Assembly: GCA_963744145.1 (NCBI GenBank)
Contig: CAVUSO010000001.1
Location: forward strand, 4,246,459-4,310,458
DNA from: an uncultured cyanobacterium
GTDB lineage: Bacteria; Cyanobacteriota; Cyanobacteriia; Cyanobacteriales; CAWUOF01
Length of the DNA: 64,000 bases
Reading direction: 5' to 3'
Part shown: positions 20,138 through 61,625 of the stretch, one piece after another
Numbering within the stretch: the first letter of the stretch is position 1
Layout of the letters: each line of letters starts with the position of its first letter
Position numbers and translations under genes: made by a program
The notes under the pieces: model-generated
Database searches by the model: none
Told to the model about the DNA's origin: nothing
What the model saw: the letters and a program-made list of their open reading frames with translations, nothing else

Positions 20138-22366
20138 ATGCTAGGTTTGCGCTACGAATCAATCCTAGACCTGGTTACCTTCACCACCGAAAAAAGTAAA
20201 AATTCTACTTTTCTACCCATCAAAATTTTTACCAAATTAGTCCAATTCTGTCAACCTTTAATTCTAGCATTATGTGCTGCAACTGCGGAAATTCTTTTTT
20301 TGCGTGGTGTCGGGACAGGGGCACTTTTACTAACAGCGATGCTCCTCCAACCAGCAGTTTTATTAATGGGAATAACCGGAGTAATCGCAGCAGTTACCTT
20401 TGCTAAAATTGCTCAACTTGGACAGAACTATCTCGATCGAGGTCCATTTCTCTTTAACCCACTTCTAGCAGGTTTAAGTGTCGGTTACCTATTTCAACCA
20501 GGAGCAGCTTCTTTATTTCTCGCTGGAGTAGCAGGAATATTAGCTTTTATTCTCACCTGGACTCTATCCCATATCTTCCGAACTTTCTTATTTTTACCTG
20601 TCTTAAGTTTACCCTTTATCATCGTCAGTTGGGTAGTACATCTAGCTGCATTTCGTTATGCTGGATTACAACCAGCAATTATTCCTGCTCATGTTTATTC
20701 CATTGGTTTACCAATCTGGATGGAAGGATTCTTGAGAACTTTAGGGTTGATTTTTTTCCTCCCTAATATCTGGGTAGGAATTGTCGTCGCAGGATTACTA
20801 TTAGTCAACTCACGCATCCAATTTTTATTAGCAATAGGTGGTTATGCGTTAGGAACTTCCATTCGCGGTATTCTCACAGGAACATTTATTTATGTCTATT
20901 ATGATCCAGCAGCATTAAATTTTGTATTAGTTGCATTAGCGATCGGTGGTTTTTATCTCCTTCCCTCCATCCGAAGTTATGCGATCGCAGGTTTAGCAAT
21001 TGGATTAGTTGCAGTATTAAGCGAAGCAGTGAGTGTATTTTGGGCAGCTTCTGGGTTACCAGTTCATGCGTTACCTTATAATTTAGTCACCTTATTATTG
21101 TTGTATGTATTGGGATTAGTAGGATATCGTTGGTTAACTAGATATCCTCAACCAACTCCAGAACAAACTCTCGATTATGAATTAACTGCTCGATTAAGAT
21201 ATCAAGGTACGGGAAAAACAATTTCCTTACCTTTTTCTGGTCGTTGGTTAGTTTGGCAAGGTTTTCATGGTCAATGGACTCATCAAGGTTTGTGGTGTTA
21301 TGCTTATGATTTTGTGATTCAAGATGAGTCTGGTTCTACTTATCGTGATGATGGATTTAATCTGAAAGATTATTATGCTTATGGTAAACCAATCCTCTCT
21401 CCAGTTCGAGGTTGGATCGTTCGAGTCATTAGTGATTTACCAGATTGTGCGATCGGTAATATTGATCAGGAACATAATTGGGGTAATCATATAATTATTT
21501 ACGATGAACGAGGTTTTTATGTCGAAATATCCCATTTTGCTCAACATAGCATTACCGTAAAATCAGGCGATCGCGTAGAAATTGGCACTTTATTAGGTCG
21601 TTGTGGTAATTCTGGTTATTCTTCCCAACCACATATTCATATTCAAGTCCAACTTAGCGCCGAATTAGGTGCAGCAACAGCACTATTTAGTTTTGCTAAT
21701 CTGATGGTAGATGGTGAATTTAGAGCCGAAGCTACCCCATCAGAAAATACTATATTAGAACCAGTAGCAAGCGATCGCGCTCTCGCTAAAGCTTTAACTT
21801 TCCCCCTTGATTCTAGTTTCGATTTTACTGTTACTCAAAAAGAAAAAATCGTTGATCATCTCTCTTTAACTACCCGGATCACAGGAGATGGTTGGTTTTA
21901 TCTAGATTCGGGTAAAGCCAAATTATACTTTAGTCGAGATGAGTACGGATTTATCTTTCATCGATTAGATGGTAATGATCCTAACTTAGCCTTATTATTA
22001 ACAGCAATTCCTCGATTACCCCTAGCTAGACGTGAACCCGGAAATACATGGTCTGATTATCTTCCCGTCGGGATGATGATTACTGGAATTCGACAAATGG
22101 TTTACTTATTTGCTAGTTCCTTTGTACCAGAGTTAGCTTCAGCTCGCTATACTGGTGAATGGATTTCAAATGAAACTTTAGTAGGAGCAGTCACCATCCC
22201 AGGAATCAAGAATAAAGTATTGACATCTGCTACTTTTGCTCAAAATGGAGAAATTCTCAGAGTCGGTGTCGGTCAGCGATCGCTAGTACGTCAAGATTTA
22301 CAGGTTGTCACCCAGAAATCCCACCGTTGTTTAGGAGTCGGGATGAATGGAAGTACCGTTGGTTAG
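20138..22366 (+). CDS. fusion protein: polytopic membrane domain + M23 metallopeptidase + C-terminal domain of unknown function
   Basis: About 330 aa with roughly 10 hydrophobic helices, possibly of the urea-transporter fold (unverified). Then GNHIIIYDERGFYVEISHFAQHSITVKSGDRVEIGTLLGRCGNSGYSSQPHIHIQV, the M23 HxH signature. Then about 220 aa with no motif I recognise. Confidence 0.7.
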   Translation: MLGLRYESILDLVTFTTEKSKNSTFLPIKIFTKLVQFCQPLILALCAATAEILFLRGVGTGALLLTAMLLQPAVLLMGITGVIAAVTFAKIAQLGQNYLDRGPFLFNPLLAGLSVGYLFQPGAASLFLAGVAGILAFILTWTLSHIFRTFLFLPVLSLPFIIVSWVVHLAAFRYAGLQPAIIPAHVYSIGLPIWMEGFLRTLGLIFFLPNIWVGIVVAGLLLVNSRIQFLLAIGGYALGTSIRGILTGTFIYVYYDPAALNFVLVALAIGGFYLLPSIRSYAIAGLAIGLVAVLSEAVSVFWAASGLPVHALPYNLVTLLLLYVLGLVGYRWLTRYPQPTPEQTLDYELTARLRYQGTGKTISLPFSGRWLVWQGFHGQWTHQGLWCYAYDFVIQDESGSTYRDDGFNLKDYYAYGKPILSPVRGWIVRVISDLPDCAIGNIDQEHNWGNHIIIYDERGFYVEISHFAQHSITVKSGDRVEIGTLLGRCGNSGYSSQPHIHIQVQLSAELGAATALFSFANLMVDGEFRAEATPSENTILEPVASDRALAKALTFPLDSSFDFTVTQKEKIVDHLSLTTRITGDGWFYLDSGKAKLYFSRDEYGFIFHRLDGNDPNLALLLTAIPRLPLARREPGNTWSDYLPVGMMITGIRQMVYLFASSFVPELASARYTGEWISNETLVGAVTIPGIKNKVLTSATFAQNGEILRVGVGQRSLVRQDLQVVTQKSHRCLGVGMNGSTVG

Positions 22367-22665: not shown

Positions 22666-22881
22666 ATGAAAGTTAAAGTAACAGAACAAGGTGTAGTCAT
22701 TCCCAAAGATTTTCTAGAGGGAGTTGAAGAGGTAGAAATCCGTAAGGAAAATAATATTATCTTTGTGATAGTAACTAATAAAACAGATCCAATTTTTGAG
22801 ATGGGAATAAATCCTGTAAACTGCGGAGTTTCTGATGCGTCTGAAAATTTAGATAACTATATTTACGGTTCTATTGAATGA
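22666..22881 (+). CDS. small antitoxin-like protein (possibly AbrB/SpoVT-type)
   Basis: 71 aa, QGVVIPKDFLEGVEEVEIRKENNIIFV. Its stop overlaps (ATGA) the start of a PIN pseudogene. Confidence 0.45.
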   Translation: MKVKVTEQGVVIPKDFLEGVEEVEIRKENNIIFVIVTNKTDPIFEMGINPVNCGVSDASENLDNYIYGSIE

Positions 22882-23075
22882 ATAGAGTTTTTTTAGATAC
22901 GAGTTATATTATCGCTTTATAAACAGCCGATGATAATTATTATCGGACATTAAAACATTGGCAGGATTTGATTAAAGAACCACCAAAATTAGTAACTACA
23001 TCTTATATTTTTGACGAAATGGCGCCATTTTTTAATAGTCGAAATCGTCATCATAAAGCTGTGCTAATCGGTTAA
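22878..23075 (+). pseudogene. PIN-domain (VapC-like) toxin remnant with an in-frame stop and a 3' truncation
   Basis: MNRVFLDTSYIIAL* then ...DDNYYRTLKHWQDLIKEPPKLVTTSYIFDEMAPFFNSRNRHHKAVLIG. It ends where unrelated repeat sequence starts. Confidence 0.65.
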
Positions 23076-23126
23076 TGTCGCGATCGCTCGCATATACGGT
23101 ATAATTCAATATGGTTCAGTTAAGGG

Positions 23127-23319
23127 TTGGTCAAGATGCAGGGATTTTGGGGCGATCGTCTCTGTAGATGCCTTGCACATCGCCAGCGCAGAAGCATCTA
23201 ACAGCGATTACTTTCTCACTTGTGATCAGCGTCTGATTAATCGTTGCCAAGAGCTAGCCTTAAACGTTATGAACCCCGCATCCTTTACAGCGGATTCGGT
23301 GGTTGATGAAGTACAGTAA
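23127..23319 (+). pseudogene. C-terminal fragment of a second PIN-domain gene
   Basis: ...VDALHIASAEASNSDYFLTCDQRLINRCQELALNVMNPASF... is a typical PIN C-terminus. No N-terminal half is present. Confidence 0.5.
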
Positions 23320-23333
23320 GATTTAGCATGAAT

Positions 23334-23597
23334 GGCGATCTGTTAAAGTCGCTTGTGAGTTATCTGTGTTGGTTGGGCAGGTTTATGATCGTTATCTGTT
23401 TGGAGCAGAATTGATTGGTGAACCTGCCCCTACAAATCCCGGTTGATTGTGATCATAAATTCATTCACCAGACATTTTTATGAGCTAATTTGATCTTAAA
23501 TGTTATATTTTTTGGTGAATCTCTGTAGGGGCGGGTTCACCGATGAACTTGCTACACACAAATAACCTTAATGAACCCGCCCTGCCCCACAGATCAA
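23334..23597. mobile_element. MITE-like element, same family as 9135..9310
   Basis: The right end aacccgccctgccccacagatcaa is the inverse of the ttgatctgt...gggcaggttt type of left end. Inner inverted pair: ggtgaacctgcccctac / gtaggggcgggttcacc. Confidence 0.6.
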
Positions 23598-23646
23598 CTT
23601 GATGAACTTCATAAACCTGGAATAGGCTGTATCACGGAGATCGACT

Positions 23647-23856
23647 ATGAAAGTTAATCTACCCAAGGAACAACAAGTGATCCAAGAAGCCCTGCAAATT
23701 CTCTATGCTCACATGACCCCACTCAAAGTCGCCCGCTTTATCACCGCTTGTCAGCTAGGCGAAGGAGACTATCTCCAAACCAAAGACGAACTGTTTGTCG
23801 ATGAAACCGTAGATAGTTTGTGTGACAAGATTAAAGCCTTTAAGCAAGGTAAATAG
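23647..23856 (+). CDS. small hypothetical protein
   Basis: 69-aa ORF. Function not recognisable. Confidence 0.35.
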   Translation: MKVNLPKEQQVIQEALQILYAHMTPLKVARFITACQLGEGDYLQTKDELFVDETVDSLCDKIKAFKQGK

Positions 23857-23997
23857 ACAGCGATCGCCATCTCAATATTTCGCCCAGTTCTCCGCTGATG
23901 TCCTCCAAAATATTCTTAACTGAACCGTATTGCGGTATGATTAACTGTCAGAACGCTATTCCCAGAGCGAGGCGATCGCAGTGAAACAATAATAAAG

Positions 23998-24204
23998 ATG
24001 CAACAATCGCGTGAGCTGATTCGCAGTTATGCCGCTTATGCTCTGAGTGCCTTTAAGAATTTTAGTGCAGCAGACATAGAAGAAATTACCCTGAAATTTG
24101 GGTTAAATATTGGTGGTAAAGCCGGAATTCCTTTTATCACAGAAGGAACTGCCGAAAGCAATTTAGAAATCGAAGTTAAATATAAATTTTCTAAGGCGAC
24201 TTAA
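23998..24204 (+). CDS. 5'-truncated duplicate of the Trypco2-like gene (C-terminal 68 aa)
   Basis: 23968..24236 aligns with 30481..30749, covering both coding sequence and 3' flank. The ORF starts at the internal Met of the full-length paralogue. Confidence 0.7.
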   Translation: MQQSRELIRSYAAYALSAFKNFSAADIEEITLKFGLNIGGKAGIPFITEGTAESNLEIEVKYKFSKAT

Positions 24205-24280
24205 AAAAAATTAAATAAAAAACGATTAACTGTTAAGTGCTTTTTTATTGGTATTCGAGGAAGGCGATCGCTCCAAATGT

Positions 24281-25201
24281 ATGACCAATGATTTTCCCAT
24301 CTTGTTTGTTACGGAAAAAGCTTATGAAGAATCCTCGAATGAAATTTTAGGGAGCAAGTATAAGTTTTGGTTCTATCACGAAGAATTTGGTCGTTGTCTT
24401 TACAAACAAAACCGAGTCAACTTGGGAGAAGATTGGGCAGAGAAAGTCGCATCAGAATTGTGTGAATTAATCGGACTTCCTCACGCTGTTTATGAATTGG
24501 CTTCAACTTGGAAAGGCGATCGCGGTGTAATTTCACCCAACTTTTTACCACAAGGGGGGACGCTTGTACATGGTAACGAACTGCTTACTTCAATTGTGCC
24601 AAATTACCTAACATTTAGCACCTACGGCGCATCACAACATACAATTGATGTAGTTTTAAGAGTTATTGCAGGCAGTTCTGTAAATTTACCCATTAATTGG
24701 ACACCGCCCTCTGGTATCCAAAAAGCAGTGGATGTATTTGTTGGCTATCTTTTGTTAGATGCGTGGATTGGTAACGGAGATCGTCACCATGAAAACTGGG
24801 GGATTGTCCGAATAAAACCGTCATCTACTTCAGAAGAAATGGAACACTTAGCACCTACTTACGATCATGCCTCAAGTTTAGGACGTGAACTCTCTGATGA
24901 AAAAAGGCAGAAACGATCTATACTGGATTATACCGACAAATGTTTTTCAGCGTTTTATGGTAGTGTTGATGATAAAAAGAGCCTGAAAGTTTTTGATACA
25001 TTCTCCCAAGTTGTTCATCGTTATCCCCAAGCAGCTAGTGTGTGGTTGACGCGACTTGAAAATATATCAGAAGCCAATATATTAGATATTTTTAATCGCA
25101 TTAATTGCTCACGGATCTCTCCCAATGCCAGTAATTTTGCTCAAAAAATTCTGGAAATTAACAAACACAGGATACTAACCTTATGGGAAACACTACCTTA
25201 A
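24281..25201 (+). CDS. HipA-like Ser/Thr kinase core without a HipA N-terminal domain (HipT-like architecture)
   Basis: Catalytic region LLLDAWIGNGDRHHENWGIV and APTYDHASSLG match the HipA C-domain motifs. The length (about 306 aa from the ATG at 24281) is too short to include the HipA N-subdomain. Confidence 0.75.
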   Translation: MTNDFPILFVTEKAYEESSNEILGSKYKFWFYHEEFGRCLYKQNRVNLGEDWAEKVASELCELIGLPHAVYELASTWKGDRGVISPNFLPQGGTLVHGNELLTSIVPNYLTFSTYGASQHTIDVVLRVIAGSSVNLPINWTPPSGIQKAVDVFVGYLLLDAWIGNGDRHHENWGIVRIKPSSTSEEMEHLAPTYDHASSLGRELSDEKRQKRSILDYTDKCFSAFYGSVDDKKSLKVFDTFSQVVHRYPQAASVWLTRLENISEANILDIFNRINCSRISPNASNFAQKILEINKHRILTLWETLP

Positions 25202-25212
25202 AAACACTAAAA

Positions 25213-25977
25213 ATGAAGACATCAAAAACACTATTTTTAGCTTGGCAAGACTATTTTAGTCGCGCTTGGTTTACCATAGGTCGGTTAACATTTGACGGAG
25301 ATATTTATAAATTTGTCTATACGCAAGGTGTAAAAGAAGCTCAAGAAAAATGTGCTTTTAATCCTTTATCTTCCTTTCCATATTTAGATCAAGTCTATAC
25401 ATCAACTCACCTATTTCCAGTCTTTGCTAATCGGTTAATGTCGCGATCGCGTCCTGATTATTCCAGTTTTATTGAATCGTTAAATCTTTTACCTGATAAT
25501 AACGAACCAATGGAAGTTTTAGCCCGCAGTGGTGGAGAACGAGAAACAGATACACTTGCGGTTTTTCCTTGTCCAGAAGTTGATGAAAAGGGACAATACA
25601 ATCTCTATTTTTTCTCGCATGGGTTGCGACACTTACCAACCAGTGCAATTGAGCGGATTAATCAGTTTGAACCTAGAGAAGAATTATGGTTAGCTCACGA
25701 ATTTCAAAATTCTTACGATTATCAGGCTTTAACTTTAAATACTAAAGACCATTACATTGTCGGTTATTGTCCGCGATATTTGCTGGCAGAAATTTTTGAA
25801 TTGCTTCGGCAAAATTCCAGTCTAAAAGTGCGAGTAGAGCAAGTAAATAAATCTCCAACCCCACTTCAGTTTCGTCTGTTATGTAAAATGAGTGTCAATT
25901 GTAGAGATAATTTTTGTCCTTTCTCAAGTAGTCAATATCAATCGCTGATTGTAGAAATTGCGATGAAATCTGCATAA
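25213..25977 (+). CDS. HipS/HipA-N-like domain fused to a HIRAN-like domain
   Basis: The N-half (F..IGRLTFDG..YKFVY...FNPLSSFPYLDQVYTSTHLFPVFANRL...PMEVLARSGGERETDTLAVFP) parallels the HipA N-terminal coupling domain. The C-half (EPREELWLAHEFQNSYDYQALTLNTKDHYIVGYCPRYLLAEIFELL) parallels the HIRAN pattern. It overlaps the kinase gene end. Confidence 0.55.
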   Translation: MKTSKTLFLAWQDYFSRAWFTIGRLTFDGDIYKFVYTQGVKEAQEKCAFNPLSSFPYLDQVYTSTHLFPVFANRLMSRSRPDYSSFIESLNLLPDNNEPMEVLARSGGERETDTLAVFPCPEVDEKGQYNLYFFSHGLRHLPTSAIERINQFEPREELWLAHEFQNSYDYQALTLNTKDHYIVGYCPRYLLAEIFELLRQNSSLKVRVEQVNKSPTPLQFRLLCKMSVNCRDNFCPFSSSQYQSLIVEIAMKSA

Positions 25978-26192
25978 CGCTTGGTATTATAATAACAAGA
26001 TTTACGCAAAATATCAACGCGATCGCATATACGGTATAATTAACTGTCAGAACGCTATTCCTAGAACGAGGCTCGCTAACATAAAATGCGTAAGTCTTGT
26101 ATATATTAAGTGCTGCTGAATATCTCATTAACTAGGAATATGCTGTAAATTGCACCAGTCTATAAATCGTGGCAGTTTATAAATCTTTGTGA

Positions 26193-29100
26193 TCATTTCC
26201 ATTGATTACAAACTTCTTTTATAGAATCAACTACACCTCGCATAGCTGTTTCTTCACCTAATGAAATAATAGCAGGATAAAGAGTTACTAAGTTTTTTAT
26301 AAAGTCTTGTCTATTAGTAGATGCTAGGATGTGAAGATATAACTTCCAATCAGAGAATGATAAATTAGATAAATCAAGACTATGGAGAAAACCATTGATT
26401 GCTTTTGCTTGATTTGGTTTAGAATTTATCTTAAAAATCTCATTTTTCACTTGAGATAATAATTGTTCAGGTACGAATTTACTTAGACCATTCAATACCT
26501 CTGCCCGACTGGATTCATCCTGAATAGTGCGTGCCGCATCCAAGGCTTCGGCAAAATAGGCCCTATCAATCTGAGCAAGGGAACTCAATACCTCTGCCCG
26601 ACTGGATTCATCCTGAATAGTGCGTGCTGCATCCAAGGCTTCGGCAAAATAGGCCCTATCAATCTGAGCAAGGGAACTCAATACCTCTGCCCGACTGTAT
26701 TTATCCTGAATAGTACGTGCCGCATCCAATAAAACTGAGAAATCTGCACCATCAATCTGAGCAAGAGATCTCAATACCAATGCCCGAAGGGATTCAGACT
26801 GAATAGCGCGTGCCGTATCCAATAAAACTGAGAAATCTGCACTATCAATCTGAGCAAGAGATCTCAATACTAATGCTCGAAGGGGTTCAGACTGAATAGT
26901 GCGTGCTGCATCTAATGCTTCTCCAAAATAAGCACTATCAATTTGAGCAAGGAATCTCAATACCTCTGCCCGACTGTATTTATCCTGAATAGCGCGTGCC
27001 GCATTCAATAAAACTGAGAAATCCGCACTATCAATCTGAGCAAGGGATCTTAATACCCATGCCCGCAAGAATTTATCCTGAATAGTGTGTGCCGCATCCA
27101 ATAAAACTGAGAAATCCGCACTATCAATCTGAGCAAGGGAACTCAATACCTCCGCCCGAATAGATTCAGACTGAATAGCGCGTACTGCATCCAATGCTTC
27201 GGCAAAATAGGCCCTATCAATCTGAGCAAGGGAACTTAATACCTTTGCCCGAATAGATTCATCCTGAATAGCGCGTGCCGCATCCAATGCTTCTGTAAAA
27301 CAGGCACTATCAATCTGAGCAAGGGAACTCAATACCTTTGCCCGAAGTGCCCGACGGGATTCATCCTGAATAGCGCGTGCCGCATCCAATGCTTCTGTAA
27401 AACAGGCACTATCAATCTGAGCAAGAGAACTCAATACCCATGCCCGAAAGGATTCATCCTGAAGAGCGCGTGTCGCATCCAATGCTTCGGCAAAATAGGC
27501 CCTATCAATCTGAGCAAGAGAACTCAATACTAATGCCCAAATGAATTGATCCTGACTAGCTTGTGCTGCATCCAATGCTTCTGTAAAATAGGCATTATCA
27601 ATCTGAGCAAGAGAACTCAATACTAATGCCCGATTTTTTTCATCCTGAATAGCGCGTGCTGCATCTAATGCTTCGGTAAAATAGGCCCTATCAATCTGAG
27701 CCAGGGCACTCAATGCCTCTGCCCGATTTTTTTTATCCTGAATAGCGCGTGCTGCATCCAATGCTTCGGTAAAATAGGCCCTATCAATCTGAGCCAGGGC
27801 ACTCAATACTTCTGCCCGATTGGATTCATTCTGAATAGCGCGTGTCGCATCCAATGCTTCGGCAAAATAGGCCCTATCAATCTGAGCCAGGGCACTCAAT
27901 GCCTCTGCCCGATGGTATTCATCCTGAATAGCGCTTATTTTTGTTAAAGCCTTCTTAAATAATGGTTTGGAAAAATAACAACATAATCCCTTAATCCATT
28001 CGGCTATTTTATGTTCATCTTGCATTTGCTCTACATAAGCCCAAGCTTGCTCTATTGTCCAAAATTTACCTTTGACAAATTCTTTGATCATGTCAATCGG
28101 TAGGTTTTCCAATAAACTGTTTAATGTTGCTGTAATTAAGGCATACCGATATTGCAGAACAATAGAGCGGGTTTTGTCTTGCTCATATTGTTGTTCGGCG
28201 ATCGCCCAAGCTCTAGCCACATCTTCCACAAAAATTGCTGGTTGACCAAGGCGATCGCAAGTTTCAAACCAAGCATTATGTCCTAAGCGATCGCTACTAC
28301 CTAGAAGAGTATGAATTTCATCAATCCAACCAGCTTGCTCTAAGTGCCAAGTCAACTGACGATGAATATATCCATCATTCGGTAAATTATACCAAGATTT
28401 TTCCTCAGTTTTTTCTCGGTAACGTTCTAGAAATTGTTGATGAGCCAAAGATAAGCAAGAACAATTTTTATCCCTAGAGCCTAGAGAATTAAGCTTACCT
28501 TCTTCAATCAGACTCCGAGCCATATCGTGCATAAGGTCGTGGATACGATAGGTTGGCTCATCCTCTAATGTAGTAACACCATCAGTCAGAAAAGAACGGT
28601 GTCGCAATAATGACAATCTTTGTTTAACTTGCACATTAGACGACAAATTCCACAGAACCGAAGCAACCTCTAGGGTAAGATTAACATCTTCTGGCAAAAT
28701 ACCTAACCAGGCAAACTGTTCTAACTGTTCCTGATTCAGCCGCTTTAAACTTAAGTTGAAACAAACTTCCAAACTATGTTTACGCTGTTCTTGCTCATCT
28801 AAATCTTCCCATCTTTCCGATGACTGTAAAAGTTTAAATACTCTAGAAAACTCAGCCTTAAATTCAGCTCGTAATTCCGCCCAAGTTGAACCATCTTTGA
28901 TTAAGTTAATCGCTAAATCCAGAGCTAATGGCAAATATCCCAATACCTGAGCAAAGGCTTTTGCTTCTATTTGATCAGCATCTTTCCAATCTTTGCCTAA
29001 CTTTCCTTTAATCAGTTCTAACGCTTCATCTTCGCTCATCAAATCTAAAGAATAGTAATCAGCCTGAGCAATTCTTGCTTCCCTAGTTGTCACCAATACC

Positions 29101-30296
29101 CGACAACCTTCACCACCCACCTGAAACCATTTAGCATGATCTGCATTCCACACATCATCTACTACCAGCAACATTTGTTTTTCTGCTAACAAAGTTTGTA
29201 AATACTGAGTAGCTGATTCCTTAGTATTTGCACTAAATGCTTCCCGCGATCGATCAAGCTCTCGAATCCAATCCCCTAATAACTTCTGTAAATCCGGTTT
29301 TTGTCCTAAAGTTACCCAGAGAATTCCATCTTCAAACCGAGCATTTACTTCTGGATCTCGCACTAGAGCCGCAGCTAAAACTGACTTTCCTAAACCTCCT
29401 AATCCAGCGATCGCGGTTACTACCAGAGTTTGTCCATTTCTGCCCAGAAGTTTTTCTTTTACTGCTTTGAGAGCATCTAACCGTTCCACGTAATTTTCTG
29501 GTAAGGGAATATGGGGAAACGACTTAGATTTCTGAGGTTTTCTTTGAGTAGAATAATTGAGAATGGGAATAGGTCGTCCACTGAGCAGGTGAACGGGTTC
29601 TTGACCACTTCCCTTTAATTGAATACAAATAAAAACGGTTAGTATACCAGCATAAATATTGCCATCATCAGCAGCTTGTTCCGGTTGGAGTCCTTGCAGC
29701 AACGCTTTAGTAAAAAGACCATGCTCTTGATCTTCATAAGCCTTTTCTTCGGCTCTACAAGCTGTAATTAAACAATAGTCAGGCTGACGATTAAAGCTTT
29801 TTAAAGTTGACTGTACTAAATCTTTGCTGAAGGTCTCAAGTAAAGCTCCTGCATGACAGCAATCTAAGAGAATTACTAAACTGCTGAGATCAGAATCGCT
29901 CACCAACTTATTCAAATCTTCTAATCGAATCAGCGTTTCCATATCTTTTTTAGCAGAATTGGAAGCAGCGAGAAAACCTTGTTTTTCTCCAGAAAGAGTA
30001 GTTATTTGAAAACCATGTCCTGCATAATAAACTAGAGCATCTTTCCGAGCAGCTTTTTCGAGCAGAAAAGTTTTTAGAGTTTGATAGAGATCGGCAGCTA
30101 GAACTTTTTGTGAGATAATCTCATAACGACTTTTCTCATTAACCCATTTACAAGGAAACCGGACAACCTCTTGAAAAGCTCCAGACCGTTCTAGCAATTG
30201 AGCCATTTCCTCCGCATCAGTAACCGCTTTCTTTAAGGAAGGGAAACTAGGAGAGTCATATTGAGAAATACCGATTACCAGTGCATATCGCGTCAT
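26193..30296 (-). CDS. STAND NTPase: caspase-like (C14) protease + NB-ARC ATPase + helical linker + fifteen 31-aa HEAT-like repeats
   Basis: Caspase dyad YYAGHGF / LLDCCHAGA. NB-ARC motifs GLGGLGKSVLAAA (Walker A), LLVVDDVW (Walker B) and VLVTTR. C-terminal repeats of consensus AEVLSSLAQIDRAYFAEALDAARAIQDESSR. Confidence 0.85.
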   Translation of the reverse strand: MTRYALVIGISQYDSPSFPSLKKAVTDAEEMAQLLERSGAFQEVVRFPCKWVNEKSRYEIISQKVLAADLYQTLKTFLLEKAARKDALVYYAGHGFQITTLSGEKQGFLAASNSAKKDMETLIRLEDLNKLVSDSDLSSLVILLDCCHAGALLETFSKDLVQSTLKSFNRQPDYCLITACRAEEKAYEDQEHGLFTKALLQGLQPEQAADDGNIYAGILTVFICIQLKGSGQEPVHLLSGRPIPILNYSTQRKPQKSKSFPHIPLPENYVERLDALKAVKEKLLGRNGQTLVVTAIAGLGGLGKSVLAAALVRDPEVNARFEDGILWVTLGQKPDLQKLLGDWIRELDRSREAFSANTKESATQYLQTLLAEKQMLLVVDDVWNADHAKWFQVGGEGCRVLVTTREARIAQADYYSLDLMSEDEALELIKGKLGKDWKDADQIEAKAFAQVLGYLPLALDLAINLIKDGSTWAELRAEFKAEFSRVFKLLQSSERWEDLDEQEQRKHSLEVCFNLSLKRLNQEQLEQFAWLGILPEDVNLTLEVASVLWNLSSNVQVKQRLSLLRHRSFLTDGVTTLEDEPTYRIHDLMHDMARSLIEEGKLNSLGSRDKNCSCLSLAHQQFLERYREKTEEKSWYNLPNDGYIHRQLTWHLEQAGWIDEIHTLLGSSDRLGHNAWFETCDRLGQPAIFVEDVARAWAIAEQQYEQDKTRSIVLQYRYALITATLNSLLENLPIDMIKEFVKGKFWTIEQAWAYVEQMQDEHKIAEWIKGLCCYFSKPLFKKALTKISAIQDEYHRAEALSALAQIDRAYFAEALDATRAIQNESNRAEVLSALAQIDRAYFTEALDAARAIQDKKNRAEALSALAQIDRAYFTEALDAARAIQDEKNRALVLSSLAQIDNAYFTEALDAAQASQDQFIWALVLSSLAQIDRAYFAEALDATRALQDESFRAWVLSSLAQIDSACFTEALDAARAIQDESRRALRAKVLSSLAQIDSACFTEALDAARAIQDESIRAKVLSSLAQIDRAYFAEALDAVRAIQSESIRAEVLSSLAQIDSADFSVLLDAAHTIQDKFLRAWVLRSLAQIDSADFSVLLNAARAIQDKYSRAEVLRFLAQIDSAYFGEALDAARTIQSEPLRALVLRSLAQIDSADFSVLLDTARAIQSESLRALVLRSLAQIDGADFSVLLDAARTIQDKYSRAEVLSSLAQIDRAYFAEALDAARTIQDESSRAEVLSSLAQIDRAYFAEALDAARTIQDESSRAEVLNGLSKFVPEQLLSQVKNEIFKINSKPNQAKAINGFLHSLDLSNLSFSDWKLYLHILASTNRQDFIKNLVTLYPAIISLGEETAMRGVVDSIKEVCNQWK
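26490..27930. repeat. 93-bp tandem repeats, about 15 copies, inside the STAND gene
   Basis: The period is read directly: tcctgaatagtgcgtgc recurs at 26518 and 26611. The last two units are identical at the protein level. Confidence 0.85.
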
Positions 30297-30333: not shown

Positions 30334-30717
30334 ATGATAAACCATTCTCTTGAGGGTACTATGTCCGAGATTCAAAAAATGCTATATACCGATGAAGATG
30401 GTAAAGAGTACGAAATCCTGATAGAAAATAAATCAGCAGTCAATCTTCCTGATGCTGATGTTGATGAAGGACGTGGTTCGCGAGGCGATCGCAGTGAAAC
30501 AATAATAAAGATGCAGCAAGCTCGTGAAATGATTCGCGGTTATGCAGCTTATGCTCTGAGTGCCTTTAAGGATTTTGGGGTAGCAGAAATAGAAGAAATT
30601 ACCCTGAAATTTGGGTTAAAGATTGGTGGTAAAGCCGGAATTCCTTTTATCACAGAAGGAACTGCTGAAAGCAACTTGGAAATCGAAGTTAAATGTAAAT
30701 TTCCTAAGGGGACTTAA
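30334..30717 (+). CDS. Trypco2-like (trypsin-co-occurring domain 2 / CU044_2847-like) small protein
   Basis: The C-terminal IRGYAAYALSAFKDFGVAEIEEITLKFGLKIGGKAGIPFITEGTAESNLEIEVKCKF is the pattern I recall for this effector-associated family. It is divergent from the caspase-NB-ARC gene, 38 nt away. The true start may be the ATG at 30361. Confidence 0.55.
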   Translation: MINHSLEGTMSEIQKMLYTDEDGKEYEILIENKSAVNLPDADVDEGRGSRGDRSETIIKMQQAREMIRGYAAYALSAFKDFGVAEIEEITLKFGLKIGGKAGIPFITEGTAESNLEIEVKCKFPKGT

Positions 30718-30882
30718 ACAAAATTAAATAAAAAACGATTAACTGTTAACTGTAATTACAAGCTAAAATAATTAAACCCTTTGGAAGAAGTGGTTTTAAA
30801 GCAATTAAGCTTCGCGGTCAATAATGTGACACTTGATGGTATGGGTTCGATCCAACTAGGATTTTAGTGGAAAGTTGTTAAG

Positions 30883-31461
30883 ATGAACAGTTTAACTCTC
30901 AACCTACCGCCTGTTCTCAAATTAACAGATGAGCAGTTTGAACAATTGGCGGCTGTTAATGGCGATTTAGGTTTAGAATTGACACCGAAGGGAGAACTAA
31001 TTGTTATGCCACCGACGGGAGGAGAAACCGGAAACCGAAATTTTGAGGCTTACATTGACTTGGGAATTTGGAACCGTCAAACTCTTTTGGGAAAAGCTTT
31101 TGATTCTTCTACAGGATTTCGATTACCTCAAGGTGGTACTCGTTCCCCTGATATTTCTTGGGTGACGATAGGACGTTGGAATAATCTTACTGAAGAGCAA
31201 CGCAAGAAATTTTTGCCTTTATGTCCTGATTTTGCGATCGAACTAGTTTCAGAAACAGATGATGTGGAAGAAACACGGGCAAAAATGCAGGAATATTTAC
31301 AAAATGGGTTACGTTTGGGATGGTTGATTAATCCTAAACTCAGACAAGTGGAAATTTATCGCCCGAATCAAGAGGTAGAGGTTTTGGCATCTCCTACGAC
31401 TTTATCGGGTGAGGATGTTTTACCAGGGTTTGTTTTAGATTTAGAGTTCATTTTTTCCTAA
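30883..31461 (+). CDS. Uma2 family putative endonuclease (second subfamily), copy L
   Basis: LTDEQFEQLA...GELIVMPPTGGETGNRNFE...SPDISWV...PDFAIELVSETD...GLRLGWLINP is the Uma2 pattern. Confidence 0.8.
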   Translation: MNSLTLNLPPVLKLTDEQFEQLAAVNGDLGLELTPKGELIVMPPTGGETGNRNFEAYIDLGIWNRQTLLGKAFDSSTGFRLPQGGTRSPDISWVTIGRWNNLTEEQRKKFLPLCPDFAIELVSETDDVEETRAKMQEYLQNGLRLGWLINPKLRQVEIYRPNQEVEVLASPTTLSGEDVLPGFVLDLEFIFS

Positions 31462-31586
31462 TGGACTCCGATGACTTAATGACACAACTGCAACAACTGG
31501 CGAGCCAAAATAATCAAACCATCAACGAACTCAGATTCCTGATCTGCGAAAGCACAACAACTATTCGCCCATCTTGCTAATTCAGG

Positions 31587-31874
31587 TCATCGTCAGTTGG
31601 GTAGTACATCTAGCTGCTTTTCGTTATGCTGGATTACAACCTCGCAGGTTTAGCAATTGGATTAGTTGCAGTATTAAGTGAAGCAGTGAGTGTATTTTGG
31701 GCAGCTTCTGGGTTACCAGTTCATGCGTTACCCTATAATTTAGTCACCTTATTATTGTTGTATGTATTAGAATTAGTAGGATATCGTTGGTTAACTAGAT
31801 ATCCTCAACCAACTCCAGTGTCGGTCAGCGATCGCTAGTACGTCAAGATTTACAGTTTGTCACCCAGAAATCCC
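31587..31874 (+). pseudogene. three-segment mosaic copy of the membrane-M23 gene
   Basis: 31587..31641 matches 20619..20673. 31642..31818 matches 20985..21160. 31819..31874 matches 22266..22322. All are in the same orientation, and segments 1 and 2 are out of frame with each other. Confidence 0.85.
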
Positions 31875-31912
31875 GAGTTGGGTTATCTTTAGTTTAATTA
31901 GGATAAATATTG

Positions 31913-32197
31913 ATGTCTAATCCGACAATTGAAGCAAAAATTAGTCTTCCGGTAAGTTTATTAGAAGCGACTAATAAAGCAGTGCAACAAGGAAAAGCAA
32001 ATAGCCGCGATGAATTTATTATGCGGGCAATTCGCAAGGAATTAGCGGCGCTGAAGCGAGCAGAAATTGATGCTTCATTTGCTAAAATGGCGAATGATGC
32101 AGAGTATCAAGCCGAAGCATTGCAAATTGCCGAGGAATTTGCTATTTCGGACTGGGAAGCTTGGCAAATGGGAGAATCTGAATATGAACAGGGGTGA
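31913..32197 (+). CDS. ribbon-helix-helix (CopG-type) antitoxin
   Basis: KISLPVSLLEATNKAVQQGKANSRDEFIMRAIRKEL is a typical RHH N-terminus. It overlaps the start of the mazF-like ORF. Confidence 0.7.
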   Translation: MSNPTIEAKISLPVSLLEATNKAVQQGKANSRDEFIMRAIRKELAALKRAEIDASFAKMANDAEYQAEALQIAEEFAISDWEAWQMGESEYEQG

Positions 32198-32369
32198 TGT
32201 TTACAATGCTCGTCTCGATCCAATTGAGGGATCTGAACAAGGGGGAAATCGTCCAGTGATTATTGTCAGTCGTAATGCTATTAATGTGAGTAGTTCTTTC
32301 GTGATAGCAGTTCCTTGGTCATTGTATAAACCTTCGTATAAAGTTGCGGGGTTTTATACGCTCATTTGA
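32184..32369 (+). pseudogene. mazF: MazF/PemK-family toxin, 3'-truncated
   Basis: MNRGDVYNARLDPIEGSEQGGNRPVIIVSRNAINVSSSFVIAVP is a normal MazF N-half. From about 32325 the sequence turns into unrelated AT-rich DNA, leaving 61 aa where roughly 110 are expected. Confidence 0.7.
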
Positions 32370-36012: not shown

Positions 36013-36591
36013 ATGAACAGTTTAACTCTCAACCTACCGCCTGTTTTCAAATTAACAGATGAGCAGTTTGAACAATTGGCGGCTGTTAATGGCGATTTAG
36101 GTTTAGAATTGACAGCGCAGGGAGAACTAATTATTATGCCACCGACGGGAGGAGAAACAGGCGATCGCAATTTTGAAATTGATGGACAGCTTTGGTTGTG
36201 GAATCGTCAAAATTTTCTGGGGAAAGCCTTTGATTCTTCTACAGGGTTTCGATTACCAAATGGCGCAACTCGTTCTCCCGATGTGGCTTGGATCAAAATT
36301 GAAAGATGGGAAGCTTTAACCCCGACACAAAGAAAGAAATTTTTACCGCTATGTCCTGATTTTGCGATCGAACTGGTTTCAGAAACAGATGATGTGGAAG
36401 AAACGCGAGCAAAAATGCAGGAATATTTACAAAATGGATTGCGGTTGGGATGGTTGATTAATCCTAAACTCAGAGAAGTGGAAATTTATCGCCCGAATCA
36501 AGAGGTAGAGGTTTTGGTATCTCCTACGACTTTATCGGGTGAAGATGTTTTACCAGGGTTTGTTTTAGATTTAGAGTTCATTTTTTCCTAA
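36013..36591 (+). CDS. Uma2 family putative endonuclease (second subfamily), copy R
   Basis: Same length as copy L. The first ~100 nt and last ~240 nt are nearly identical to copy L, while the middle is diverged. Confidence 0.8.
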   Translation: MNSLTLNLPPVFKLTDEQFEQLAAVNGDLGLELTAQGELIIMPPTGGETGDRNFEIDGQLWLWNRQNFLGKAFDSSTGFRLPNGATRSPDVAWIKIERWEALTPTQRKKFLPLCPDFAIELVSETDDVEETRAKMQEYLQNGLRLGWLINPKLREVEIYRPNQEVEVLVSPTTLSGEDVLPGFVLDLEFIFS

Positions 36592-36835
36592 TGGATGATT
36601 GAATCTGATTCAACCTACGAACTTTCTTCCTCTGTTGGAGAAAACCACAGTTTCCTTACCTATCGATGGGTCAGCTCCTCACCTACCTCAATATCCCCAA
36701 TTTTTCTCTTGAGATGTTAATATTTATGTAACGATATATCACGATCGGAGCTTTTCTAACTTGATATAATAACATCGCTCACTTAAAAAGCTGTTTTTGT
36801 GGTAAGACAAACTTGCAAGTTTTGTCTGAAATTGA

Positions 36836-39196: not shown

Positions 39197-39339
39197 GTTC
39201 AGTTAATTGTAGGGGCGTTCGCGTAGCGTGCCGGAGGCATAGCATTCGGGCGATAACTTATCACTTAAACAAGTTAATATTATATCCGAATGCTTCGCCC
39301 TTCTTCGCCGATATCTCCCAAAATATTCTTAACTGAACC
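39197..39339. mobile_element. 143-bp MITE with 10-nt terminal inverted repeats and an internal long hairpin
   Basis: Terminal inverted repeats gttcagttaa (39197) and ttaactgaac (39329). The internal arms GGGGCG...AGCATTCGGG / CCGAATGCTTCGCCC are the same module as hairpin B of the 405-bp array. Confidence 0.65.
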
Positions 39340-39354
39340 ATATTGTGTTATAAT
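39316..39354 (+). promoter_or_regulatory. candidate promoter for tRNA-Thr, partly contributed by the MITE end
   Basis: TATAAT at 39349..39354, 10 nt before the tRNA 5' end. TTCTTA lies 17 nt upstream, inside the MITE terminus. Confidence 0.35.
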
Positions 39355-39364
39355 CAAGGTTATT

Positions 39365-39437
39365 GCTGGTGTAGCTCAGTTGGTAGAGCATTCGATTTGT
39401 AATCGAACGGTCGTGGGTTCAAGTCCCTTCACCAGCT
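39365..39437 (+). tRNA. tRNA-Thr (anticodon UGU)
   Basis: Manual cloverleaf: acceptor GCTGGTG/CACCAGC, D stem GCTC/GAGC, anticodon stem TTCGA/TCGAA with loop TTTGTAA, T loop TTCAAGT. There is one U-U mismatch in the T stem (positions 50:64). Confidence 0.85.
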
Positions 39438-60040: not shown

Positions 60041-60177
60041 CTGGTTTTTGATCTTAAGGTAGTCTCTGCAAGATGGTGCAGGTACGAAAAATCAATAGAC
60101 AAGAAAGCAAAAGTCAAAAATATTTGTTTGTAGTAACGGCTGTCTTCCCTCAAATATTGAGCATGATTGGGACTGAA

Positions 60178-61625
60178 CCATTCTTTGCCGAGCTCTCCCA
60201 AAATATTCTTAACTGAACCCTACAAAAATTGTCTCCTCTAGTTTGAATGCTGATTTATGATAGTCAATCTGTGTGATTCATGAACCCAGGGCAAAGCATT
60301 TCGGTCATAGATTTCGGTCGAGGCGATAATTTCTGAGCCGAAATGCTTTGCCCCTACAAATATTACAAATATGGACAAGATTTGGTTCTTGTTTCCTGAG
60401 CGCGATCGCGAAGAGCCACAAAATCTGCATTATCATACAGTTTGGTTAATTGTAGGGGCGAAGCATTCGGGCGATAATTAATCACTCAAGCCTTTACCCT
60501 GAGCGTAGTCGAAGGGCATAATTTTAGATCCGAATGCTTCGCCCATTCTTTGCCGAGAGCTCCCAAAACATTCTTAACTGAACCATTCTTTGCCGAGCTC
60601 TCCCAAAATATTCTTAACTGAACCCTACAAAAATTGTCTCCTCTAGTTTGAATGCTGATTTATGATAGTCAATCTGTGTGATTCATGAACCCAGGGCAAA
60701 GCATTTCGGTCATAGATTTCGGTCAAGGCGATAATTTCTGAGCCGAAATGCTTTGCCCCTACAAATATTACAAATATGGACAAGATTTGGTTCTTGTTTC
60801 CTGAGCGCGATCGCGAAGAGCCACAAAATCTGCATTATCATACAGTTTGGTTAATTGTAGGGGCGAAGCATTCGGGCGATAATTAATCACTCAAGCCTTT
60901 ACCCTGAGCGTAGTCGAAGGGCATAATTTTAGATCCGAATGCTTCGCCCATTCTTTGCCGAGAGTTCCCAAAACATTCTTAACTGAACCATTCTTTGCCG
61001 AGCTCTCCCAAAATATTCTTAACTGAACCCTACAAAAATTGTCTCCTCTAGTTTGAATGCTGATTTATGATAGTCAATCTGTGTGATTCATGAACCCAGG
61101 GCAAAGCATTTCGGTCATAGATTTCGGTCGAGGCGATAATTTCTGAGCCGAAATGCTTTGCCCCTACAAATATTACAAATATGGACAAGATTTGGTTCTT
61201 GTTTCCTGAGCGCGATCGCGAAGAGCCACAAAATCTGCATTATCATACAGTTTGGTTAATTGTAGGGGCGAAGCATTCGGGCGATAATTAATCACTCAAG
61301 CCTTTACCCTGAGCGTAGTCGAAGGGCATAATTTTAGATCCGAATGCTTCGCCCATTCTTTGCCGAGAGCTCCCAAAACATTCTTAACTGAACCATTCTT
61401 TGCCGAGAGTTCCCAAAATATTCTTAACTGAACCCTACAAAAATTGTCTCCTCTAGTTTGAATGCTGATTTATGATAGTCAATCTGTGTGATTCATGAAC
61501 CCAGGGCAAAGCATTTCGGTCATAGATTTCGGTCAAGGCGATAATTTCTGAGCCGAAATGCTTTGCCCCTACAAAGATTACAAATACGGACAAGATTTGG
61601 TTCTTGTTTCCTGAGCGCGATCGTT
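60178..61625. repeat. 405-bp tandem repeat, about 3.6 copies, non-coding
   Basis: Unit starts at 60178, 60583, 60988 and 61393. Each unit carries two long hairpins (GGGCAAAGCATTTCGG...CCGAAATGCTTTGCCC and GGGCGAAGCATTCGG...CCGAATGCTTCGCCC). The track shows no ORF of 60 aa or more between 60041 and 61861. Confidence 0.9.

Follow-up and report, generated by a model that had tools for sequence, protein, structure and literature searches.

The stretch of DNA analysed here, a 64,000-nucleotide (nt) sequence referred to as the window and numbered from its first letter, contains two adjacent genes that appear to constitute a hipIN module, equivalent to the system PDC-M03 of the PADLOC database. The first gene, hipI, encodes a short serine/threonine kinase of the HipA family, while the second, hipN, encodes a probable HipS-like domain fused to a HIRAN domain. 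HipI is a putative toxin, which HipN would hold inactive until the HIRAN domain meets free DNA ends. The module lies in a mosaic of segments that seem to have been rejoined at copies of the HIP1 octamer (GCGATCGC), and a short repeat, termed unit R, is likely to be a joint of this recombination. A probability of about 0.6 is assigned to this reading as a whole, that is, to the identity of the module, its mechanism and the role of the repeat taken together. The window is cyanobacterial in style, having 39% G+C and 75 HIP1 octamers per 64 kb.

Identity of the gene pair

The PADLOC profile PDC-M03A aligns with HipI over profile positions 3-301 of 305 (residues 3-301 of the protein; 368 bits, E 9e-111). 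The profile PDC-M03B aligns with HipN over positions 1-243 of 248 (residues 11-253; 344 bits, E 2e-104). NCBIfam has no model for either protein.

The name hipIN was introduced by Gerdes, Baerentsen and Brodersen (mBio, 2021; PMC8262856) for modules in which the gene of a short kinase, HipI, is followed by that of HipN, a HipS-like domain joined to HIRAN. One subclade of HipI is made up of Proteobacteria and Cyanobacteria. The same authors proposed that HipN neutralises HipI and that HIRAN senses the ends of phage DNA, leading to abortive infection. A previous reading of the window, made from the sequence only, had mentioned HIRAN-linked HipA relatives as having been noted in surveys. They have indeed been published, but as the named hipIN module, with the kinase-first gene order described and with hypotheses for both the antitoxin and the sensing of DNA ends (PMC8262856). 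The domain assignment made in the sequence-only reading, namely a split HipA-like kinase and a HipS-like-HIRAN partner with no HipB, is right, although its HipS-like part is no more than probable.

The HipI kinase

The hipI open reading frame (ORF) specifies 306 amino acids (aa), the same length as in nearly all of its orthologues, which have an identical start. The AlphaFold2 (AF2) model of HipI (pLDDT 86, pTM 0.88) was found by Foldseek to match H. pylori CtkA (E 1e-11), Legionella HipT and the HipA proteins of E. coli and Shewanella. The HipT match includes the HipT chain of the HipS-HipT complex 8ezr. Upon alignment with HipA, the segment GNGDRHHENWG...APTYDHAS of HipI falls onto the catalytic loop and the Mg site. 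By this alignment D167 and N172, which correspond to D309 and N314 of HipA, are catalytic, and D195, which corresponds to D332, binds Mg; among 35 relatives these residues vary hardly or not at all. The Gly-rich loop LGSKYKFW is situated already at residues 23-30, showing that HipI lacks the N-subdomain-1 of HipA, about 100 residues long. The alignment of motifs and the matches of the fold are thus in agreement with the earlier description of a kinase that has the HipA catalytic motifs and no N-terminal subdomain. The Pfam profile HipA_C also detects HipI, but at 22 bits, which is below the gathering score of 30.5 bits.

The HipN partner

The length of HipN is 254-264 aa, depending on the start chosen. 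On the 264-aa ORF, the HipS-like domain would occupy residues ~14-130 and the HIRAN domain occupies residues ~140-240. The HIRAN domain scores 30.5 bits with Pfam, over the cut-off of 24.7 bits, and is present in 33 of 33 relatives. The C-terminal domain of the HipN model superposes on the HIRAN domain of HLTF (Foldseek probability 1.0, root-mean-square deviation 2.7 Å); L. plantarum lp_0118 is a further structural match. In the HipN family profile a QN-x-YD...A motif (N176, Y178, D179) is aligned to NNPYDKNA of HLTF. The HIRAN-like domain attributed earlier to the second gene is thus borne out by both sequence profile and structure.

The N-terminal domain of HipN is probably HipS-like, albeit weakly scored. 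A profile of 107 HipN sequences, built from an exhaustive search for homologues, is colinear over residues 19-130 with residues 5-106 of E. coli HipA (hhalign E 0.003, probability only 10%), and the alignment takes in the vGeL..F.Y hairpin and the F..F.N-LLP motif. The earlier claim of a HipA-N/HipS-like domain gains from this colinearity. The Couple_hipA profile gives this domain 18.3 bits, below its cut-off of 22.5 bits; at E<0.1 it matches 22 of the 33 members of the family examined.

In most intact pairs elsewhere, the stop codon of hipI and the start codon of hipN overlap in the sequence TTGA. When compared with six orthologous loci, the window has a 15-nt insertion (TAAAAACACTAAAAA) at 25199-25213, so that hipI ends in TAA and hipN begins with ATG after a spacer of 11 nt. 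The insertion may affect the translational coupling of the two genes here. The sequence-only reading had the two genes overlapping by 19 nt. Such an overlap needs the in-frame ATG at 25183, which is unconserved, whereas orthologous hipN genes have their start (MKT..LFLAWQD) at the codon that corresponds to 25213; the genes therefore do not overlap in the window. No gene for a helix-turn-helix (HTH) protein was found near hipIN among the ORFs of the window with Pfam and NCBIfam profiles, in agreement with the earlier statement that a HipB-type HTH gene is absent.

Distribution, kinase decay and mobility

The HipN profile matches 2018 representative clusters (at 50% identity) at E<=1e-3 and 446 at E<=1e-30, and 2534 homologues of hipI were counted. 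The closest relatives found for the window pair are nearly all from filamentous cyanobacteria. Homology to the window DNA was judged against 80 fetched hipIN-related loci (L001-L080). It is confined to ~24264/24277-25963/25977, that is, to the two genes alone, and no conserved upstream gene was found beside hipIN among the loci compared.

The kinase gene decays preferentially. There are 63 loci with both an intact hipN and sufficient sequence upstream of it; in 43 of them hipI is likewise intact, in 10 it is truncated or broken, and the remaining 10 lack it. Because hipI decays in 20 of the 63 loci while hipN stays, the roles of a toxin for hipI and of an antidote for hipN fit the pattern seen in the sequences.

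Decayed or absent hipI genes beside an intact hipN are found, for example, at loci L002, L010, L012, L018, L082 and L086. Filamentous cyanobacteria often have an orphan hipN.

Pairs of this type are carried by plasmids and temperate phages. A kinase-first pair of HipA-like and HIRAN genes adjoins the integrase in the C. difficile phage phiCDKH02 (L089) and in temperate elements of Vibrio of ~14 kb, and in the Vibrio phage 10N.286.55.A12_PE001 (L088) the pair is situated directly beside the integrase. L088 and L089 are two unrelated kinds of temperate phage, both having the pair in the integrase-proximal accessory region. In the mobilizable Nostoc plasmid pn5 (L090), the pair is next to DUF499/DUF1156 genes.

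Unit R and the proposed HIP1 joints

The sequence-only reading had the module bracketed by a 39-nt direct repeat, at 23934 and 26033, that carries a -10 box. The positions and the identity of this repeat are exact: 38 of 41 nucleotides are identical, where no such repeat is expected by chance, and the two copies contain TATGAT (R2) and TATAAT (R3), respectively. The true unit is longer, however. The 39-nt repeat is part of unit R, which is 54 nt long, is bounded by HIP1 and has three copies, R1 being the partial one that had been missed and R3 the only complete one (Table 1). In the window strain R3 is followed by TCGC, a HIP1 without its GA. A related strain ("organism A", ~95% identical), which is represented by the run X3, has an intact GCGATCGC there, with GA inserted after 26072 relative to the window. 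R2 is preceded by a copy of a dispersed repeat in place of the 5' part of R.

Several segments adjoin the R copies. The relic of hipN has as its core a 26-mer, TGCTAATCGGTTAATGTCGCGATCGC, that recurs unchanged in many orthologous hipN genes; a HIP1 terminates the relic, which is joined to R1 at this octamer. The Trypco1 duplicate is joined to R2 via the shared GCGAGGCGATCGC. Its source, 30480-30752, comprises the 3' 60% of the full Trypco1 gene (30334..30717) and the 3' untranslated region of that gene. The duplicate holds a 68-aa ORF (23998..24204), which is assigned by Pfam to Trypco1 (PF19493, profile positions 39-97 of 98). What had been named a truncated copy of Trypco2 is truncated as described, but belongs to Trypco1 and, being a 92% identical duplicate, was copied from 6.5 kb away.

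Of the 11 homology breakpoints in the locus, five lie no further than 2 nt from a HIP1 and one more is on a degraded HIP1; by comparison, only ~3% of positions have a HIP1 at a distance of 5 nt or less. The contigs of X3 show different arrangements of the same segments. In one of them, a 69-aa ORF and the HIP1 at 23867 are joined to 26023, continuing into a full R unit and towards the caspase gene. This joint omits 2155 bp, consisting of R2, the Trypco1 fragment, hipI and hipN. In another contig hipN is fused directly behind the 5' part of R (…CGGTATGA joined to ATGAAGACATC), and hipI and the Trypco1 fragment are missing. The order in a third contig is the 3' end of hipN, a 46-nt spacer, the 5' part of R and CAATATGGTTCAG…. 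Upon combining these contigs, X3 is seen to have hipN to the left of the segment that begins at 23107, whereas the window has hipN on its right. The side of this 0.8-kb segment on which hipN lies thus differs between two strains that are ~95% identical.

Because the junctions of both X3 and the window fall at R units, these appear to be joints of the movement, duplication and deletion of cassettes. The term "bracketed" is therefore meaningful in the sense of a recombination joint, since the repeat lies at the limits of a segment that one strain has and another lacks. Unit R looks like such a joint, as judged from these comparisons, and not like a conserved part of hipIN; it accompanies the pair in none of the 80 related loci. 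Exact searches with the repeat core covered 185,579 species genomes and also, using two patterns, the Joint Genome Institute (JGI) metagenomes; they gave zero matches, so that unit R is not a widespread element. The segments rejoined at HIP1 would be the hipN relic, the Trypco1 gene fragment and the hipIN cassette, and this forms part of the reading to which the probability given at the outset applies. HIP1-linked recombination and the precise insertion of small repeats into HIP1 have been described (PMC4390886).

Table 1. Coordinates of the hipIN module, the copies of unit R and the adjoining segments in the window
Feature	Position	Strand	Basis or remark
Inferred relic of hipN, 29 nt, 28/29 identical to 25422-25450	23059..23087	+	repeat search
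R1, 5' part of R only (GCGATCGC TCGC ATATACGGTATAATT)	23079..23106	+	repeat family D5
Inverted 18-nt copy (17/18) of the dispersed-repeat end, abutting R1	23107..23124	+	inverted pair I6
Dispersed-repeat copy (...CCAAAATATTCTTAACTGAACCGTATTG)	23868..23944	+	self-comparison
R2, 3' part of R (from CGGTATGATT), HIP1 end at 23972-23979	23933..23979	+	repeat comparison
Trypco1 duplicate, 273 nt, 92% DNA identity to 30480-30752	23967..24239	+	self-comparison
HIP1 octamer, left limit of hipIN homology to other genomes	24264..24271	.	locus comparison
hipI, short HipA-family Ser/Thr kinase, putative toxin	24281..25201	+	PADLOC, AF2/Foldseek, catalytic-loop alignment
hipN, probable HipS-like N-domain and HIRAN C-domain, putative antitoxin/sensor	25213..25977	+	PADLOC, Pfam, Foldseek, hhalign, orthologue starts
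R3, complete R copy, GCGATCGC-ATATACGGTATAATTAACTGTCAGAACGCTATTCCTAGAACGAGGC	26019..26072	+	repeat search, X3 contigs
Caspase (C14)-NB-ARC-repeat protein, neighbour outside the module	26193..30296	-	convergent with hipN, divergent from full Trypco1

Alternative explanations

Several observations weigh against the reading proposed here, in addition to two that favour a promoter and are given below. The scores by which the N-terminal domain of HipN was assigned as HipS-like are sub-threshold. Searches of the PDB sequences with a single HipN sequence and with a narrow-family profile did not reach HipS or HipA, the colinear alignment with HipA having been obtained only with the broader profile of 107 sequences, and the top 50 Foldseek matches for HipN are to HIRAN only. 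Orphan copies of hipN could instead point to an independent function of HipN. No short series of events was found that derives the arrangements of both the window and X3 from one ancestor, and literature searches found no experiment on any hipIN pair. Nor was a published phage-challenge test of PDC-M03 found. It is also conceivable, although unlikely, that hipIN is a plain type II toxin-antitoxin (TA) module serving addiction or genome stabilisation, in which HIRAN replaces the HTH of HipB for autoregulation of the operon and no phage is sensed. The occurrence of the pair on a plasmid and beside the integrases of prophages and the lack of a separate HTH regulator would agree with this, as would the order of the genes, since other reversed TA operons also have the toxin first and the antitoxin downstream. 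However, homology between the loci begins 5-17 nt before the ATG of hipI, leaving no conserved operator DNA upstream, and the HIRAN domains that have been characterised bind DNA ends and not specific operators (PMC8262856).

The promoter that the sequence-only reading placed in the bracketing repeat fared less well than the bracketing itself. According to this proposal unit R would be a portable promoter, the copy at 23933 driving the Trypco1 fragment, hipI and hipN and the copy at 26032 producing an antisense RNA into the caspase-NB-ARC gene. All three copies of R do have TATAAT or TATGAT, a hexamer of this kind being found in only 1.6-3% of 39-nt segments per strand, and TATAAT itself in only 1.6%. 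Furthermore, R2 together with the dispersed repeat upstream of it resembles the region upstream of the tRNA-Thr gene, with an extended -10. A scan with the promoter consensus, however, found no -35 partner, and the 15 promoter-like sites obtained, compared with 13.2 expected, are at the level of chance. Many cyanobacterial promoters are without a -35 box. No RNA-seq run containing this DNA was found. Transcription from R3 would run into the 3' end of a convergent gene, unit R folds no better as RNA than shuffled sequences do (z +1.0 and +1.6), and its absence from the 80 loci and from the collections searched also argues against a promoter. Unit R is thus probably not a dedicated promoter of hipIN. 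Activity of R2 as a promoter has roughly one chance in five, and would not belong to the hipIN system as such. A rather improbable explanation is that 23107..23932 is a non-autonomous transposable element inserted into one copy of R, with R1 and R2 as the two halves of that copy. The segment has 18-nt terminal inverted repeats (17/18, pair I6) and a 10-nt target duplication (9/10; CGGTATAATT / CGGTATGATT), and its excision cleanly restores a full R unit. In X3, however, only the left junction (the 5' part of R followed by CAATATGGTTCAG...) is shared; the right end is the HIP1 at 23867 joined to a full R, with no inverted repeat. The 18-mer, moreover, belongs to a dispersed family whose homology runs on into R2, and there is no transposase. 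The segment was therefore not accepted as an element with terminal inverted repeats or as a miniature inverted-repeat transposable element (MITE), X3 showing a different right junction and not an empty site. Very doubtful is the suggestion that unit R belongs to the small mobile repeats termed SDR and inserts into HIP1 as SDR5 is reported to do, between nucleotides 3 and 4 of the octamer, in Nostocaceae (PMC4390886). HIP1 or remnants of it do flank unit R on both sides, but the copy number is low: only three copies were found in the 64 kb, clustered within 3 kb, with no exact public matches, and the depth over 26008-26174 in a soil metagenome of the same strain (X1) is that of single-copy flanks. 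The recombination joint is preferred as the explanation of unit R. A much wider claim, that HIP1 octamers in this lineage are recombination joints for small defence and TA cassettes, with hipIN, the Trypco1 fragment and R cut and rejoined at GCGATCGC, would at present be improbable to a high degree. If it were true, and if a dedicated HIP1-directed activity existed, HIP1 would be an integron-like exchange site by which immune genes are shuffled.

Proposed mechanism and significance

Following Gerdes et al. (2021) and the solved HipS-HipT systems, we infer that HipI acts as a HipA-type Ser/Thr kinase without N-subdomain-1. HipN would provide the missing subdomain in trans in the form of its HipS-like domain, keeping the kinase inactive. 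The HIRAN domain of HipN would bind free 3'-OH or single-stranded DNA ends, as are found in phage genome ends, replication intermediates or damage. Binding of a DNA end, or loss of HipN, would then release the kinase. The freed kinase might phosphorylate a translation factor that is essential to the cell, an aminoacyl-tRNA synthetase being the likeliest target, and so cause the cell to arrest. The outcome would be abortive infection or addiction.

The gene pair adds nothing new to the published description of hipIN and PDC-M03. Its value is that of a clean, apparently intact cyanobacterial example of a large family (~450 clusters at 50% identity and E<=1e-30). The published hypothesis is made more concrete by the decay of the kinase first, in 20 of 63 loci, and by the integrase-proximal location in phages. 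The HIP1-bounded mosaic is a small natural data point on the long-standing question of the role of HIP1.

Neighbouring genes and other repeats

The hipIN module is situated in an island of conflict genes, which includes a VapB-like gene with a PIN pseudogene and genes for caspase-NB-ARC, Trypco1, Uma2, MazF-like and STAND NTPase proteins. The caspase (C14)-NB-ARC-APAF1_C protein has 1367 aa and at least 13 tandem 93-nt (31-aa) repeats at 26409-27926. Together with the divergent full Trypco1 gene, it represents a typical cyanobacterial STAND conflict system. The VapB-like ORF (22666..22881) is followed by the PIN-domain (vapC) pseudogene (region 22666-23078). An in-frame TAA interrupts this pseudogene at codon 15, and it breaks off at 23075, at the start of the hipN relic. 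A further fragment, resembling the C-terminal part of a PIN protein, lies separately at 23173..23319. A MazF/PemK-like toxin ORF (32067..32369; PemK profile positions 2-55 of 109) overlaps a 95-aa ORF (31910..32197) that has no Pfam match, and the two may be a degraded TA pair.

The region 23336-23669 is a high-copy repeat, with a word depth of 220-365 in X1 compared with ~5 for its flanks. It contains a 24-nt inverted repeat (23411-23434 / 23524-23547), and an X3 contig skips 23286-23629; it looks like an insertion of the MITE type. The sole Rfam match, to the plant MIR841, falls within this repeat and was dismissed as chance, its score being 27 bits against a cut-off of 200.

The dispersed repeat family (...CCCAAAAYATTCTTAACTGAACC...) has members at 23868-23944, 39294-39357 and ~60150-61450. 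Near 60-61.5 kb, several copies form part of a tandem array whose units are 405 nt long. The copy at 39294-39357 ends in TGTTATAAT 10 nt before the tRNA-Thr(UGU) gene (39365-39437) and may, because of this position, carry the promoter of that gene. The homology of 23868-23944 to this copy continues into the TATGAT of R2.

A 288-nt composite at 31587-31874, on the far side of the island, is made up of three pieces (98% identical), 20619-20673, 20985-21161 and 22266-22322, of the urea-transporter/M23-peptidase gene (20138..22366). On account of this composite, a TA/defence block of ~9.3 kb (22.3-31.6 kb) is bracketed by the 3' end of the gene and a collapsed second copy. A 66-nt direct repeat with 98% identity has its copies 5 kb apart, at 31400-31465 and 36530-36595.

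Comparison with known systems

The joints in the window share with the HIP1-associated recombination and excision of Robinson (1997) and Akiyama (1998), as these are cited in PMC4390886, the location of the junctions on GCGATCGC. Those cases, as described there, concern plasmids and cloned DNA, whereas the evidence in the window is comparative and implicates no enzyme.

Among the systems related to the gene pair, DS-6/HipAD is a different HipA-family kinase system that is proven to be anti-phage (PMC13092281). It also combines a HipA-family kinase with a partner other than HipB, and the catalytic residue of its kinase is needed for phage defence. The DS-6 partner, however, carries DUF3037 and DUF1829 and not HipS-HIRAN. 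HipL (PMC8262856) has the same three domains in the same order on the DNA, but as one polypeptide, where the window has two genes. HipBST, known from E. coli O127 and Legionella, shares the splitting of the HipA fold; its HipS neutralises the core kinase HipT, the target of which is TrpS. HipBST is tricistronic, with the HTH protein HipB and with hipS upstream of hipT. The window pair, in contrast, is without HipB and has the kinase first, with the HipS-like domain downstream and fused to HIRAN.

The likeness is closest to PDC-M03 and hipIN. The two genes match PDC-M03 of PADLOC-DB v2, in which the PDC systems are candidates, from end to end, and they are adjacent and in the order A then B. 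With hipIN they share a core kinase without N-subdomain-1, a downstream gene for a HIRAN domain with a probably HipS-like N-domain, the bicistronic arrangement with the kinase first, and the lack of an HTH gene. The 306-aa kinase falls within the published range of 279-321 aa. There is no architectural difference from hipIN, the window copy having only lost the stop/start overlap through its 15-nt insertion.

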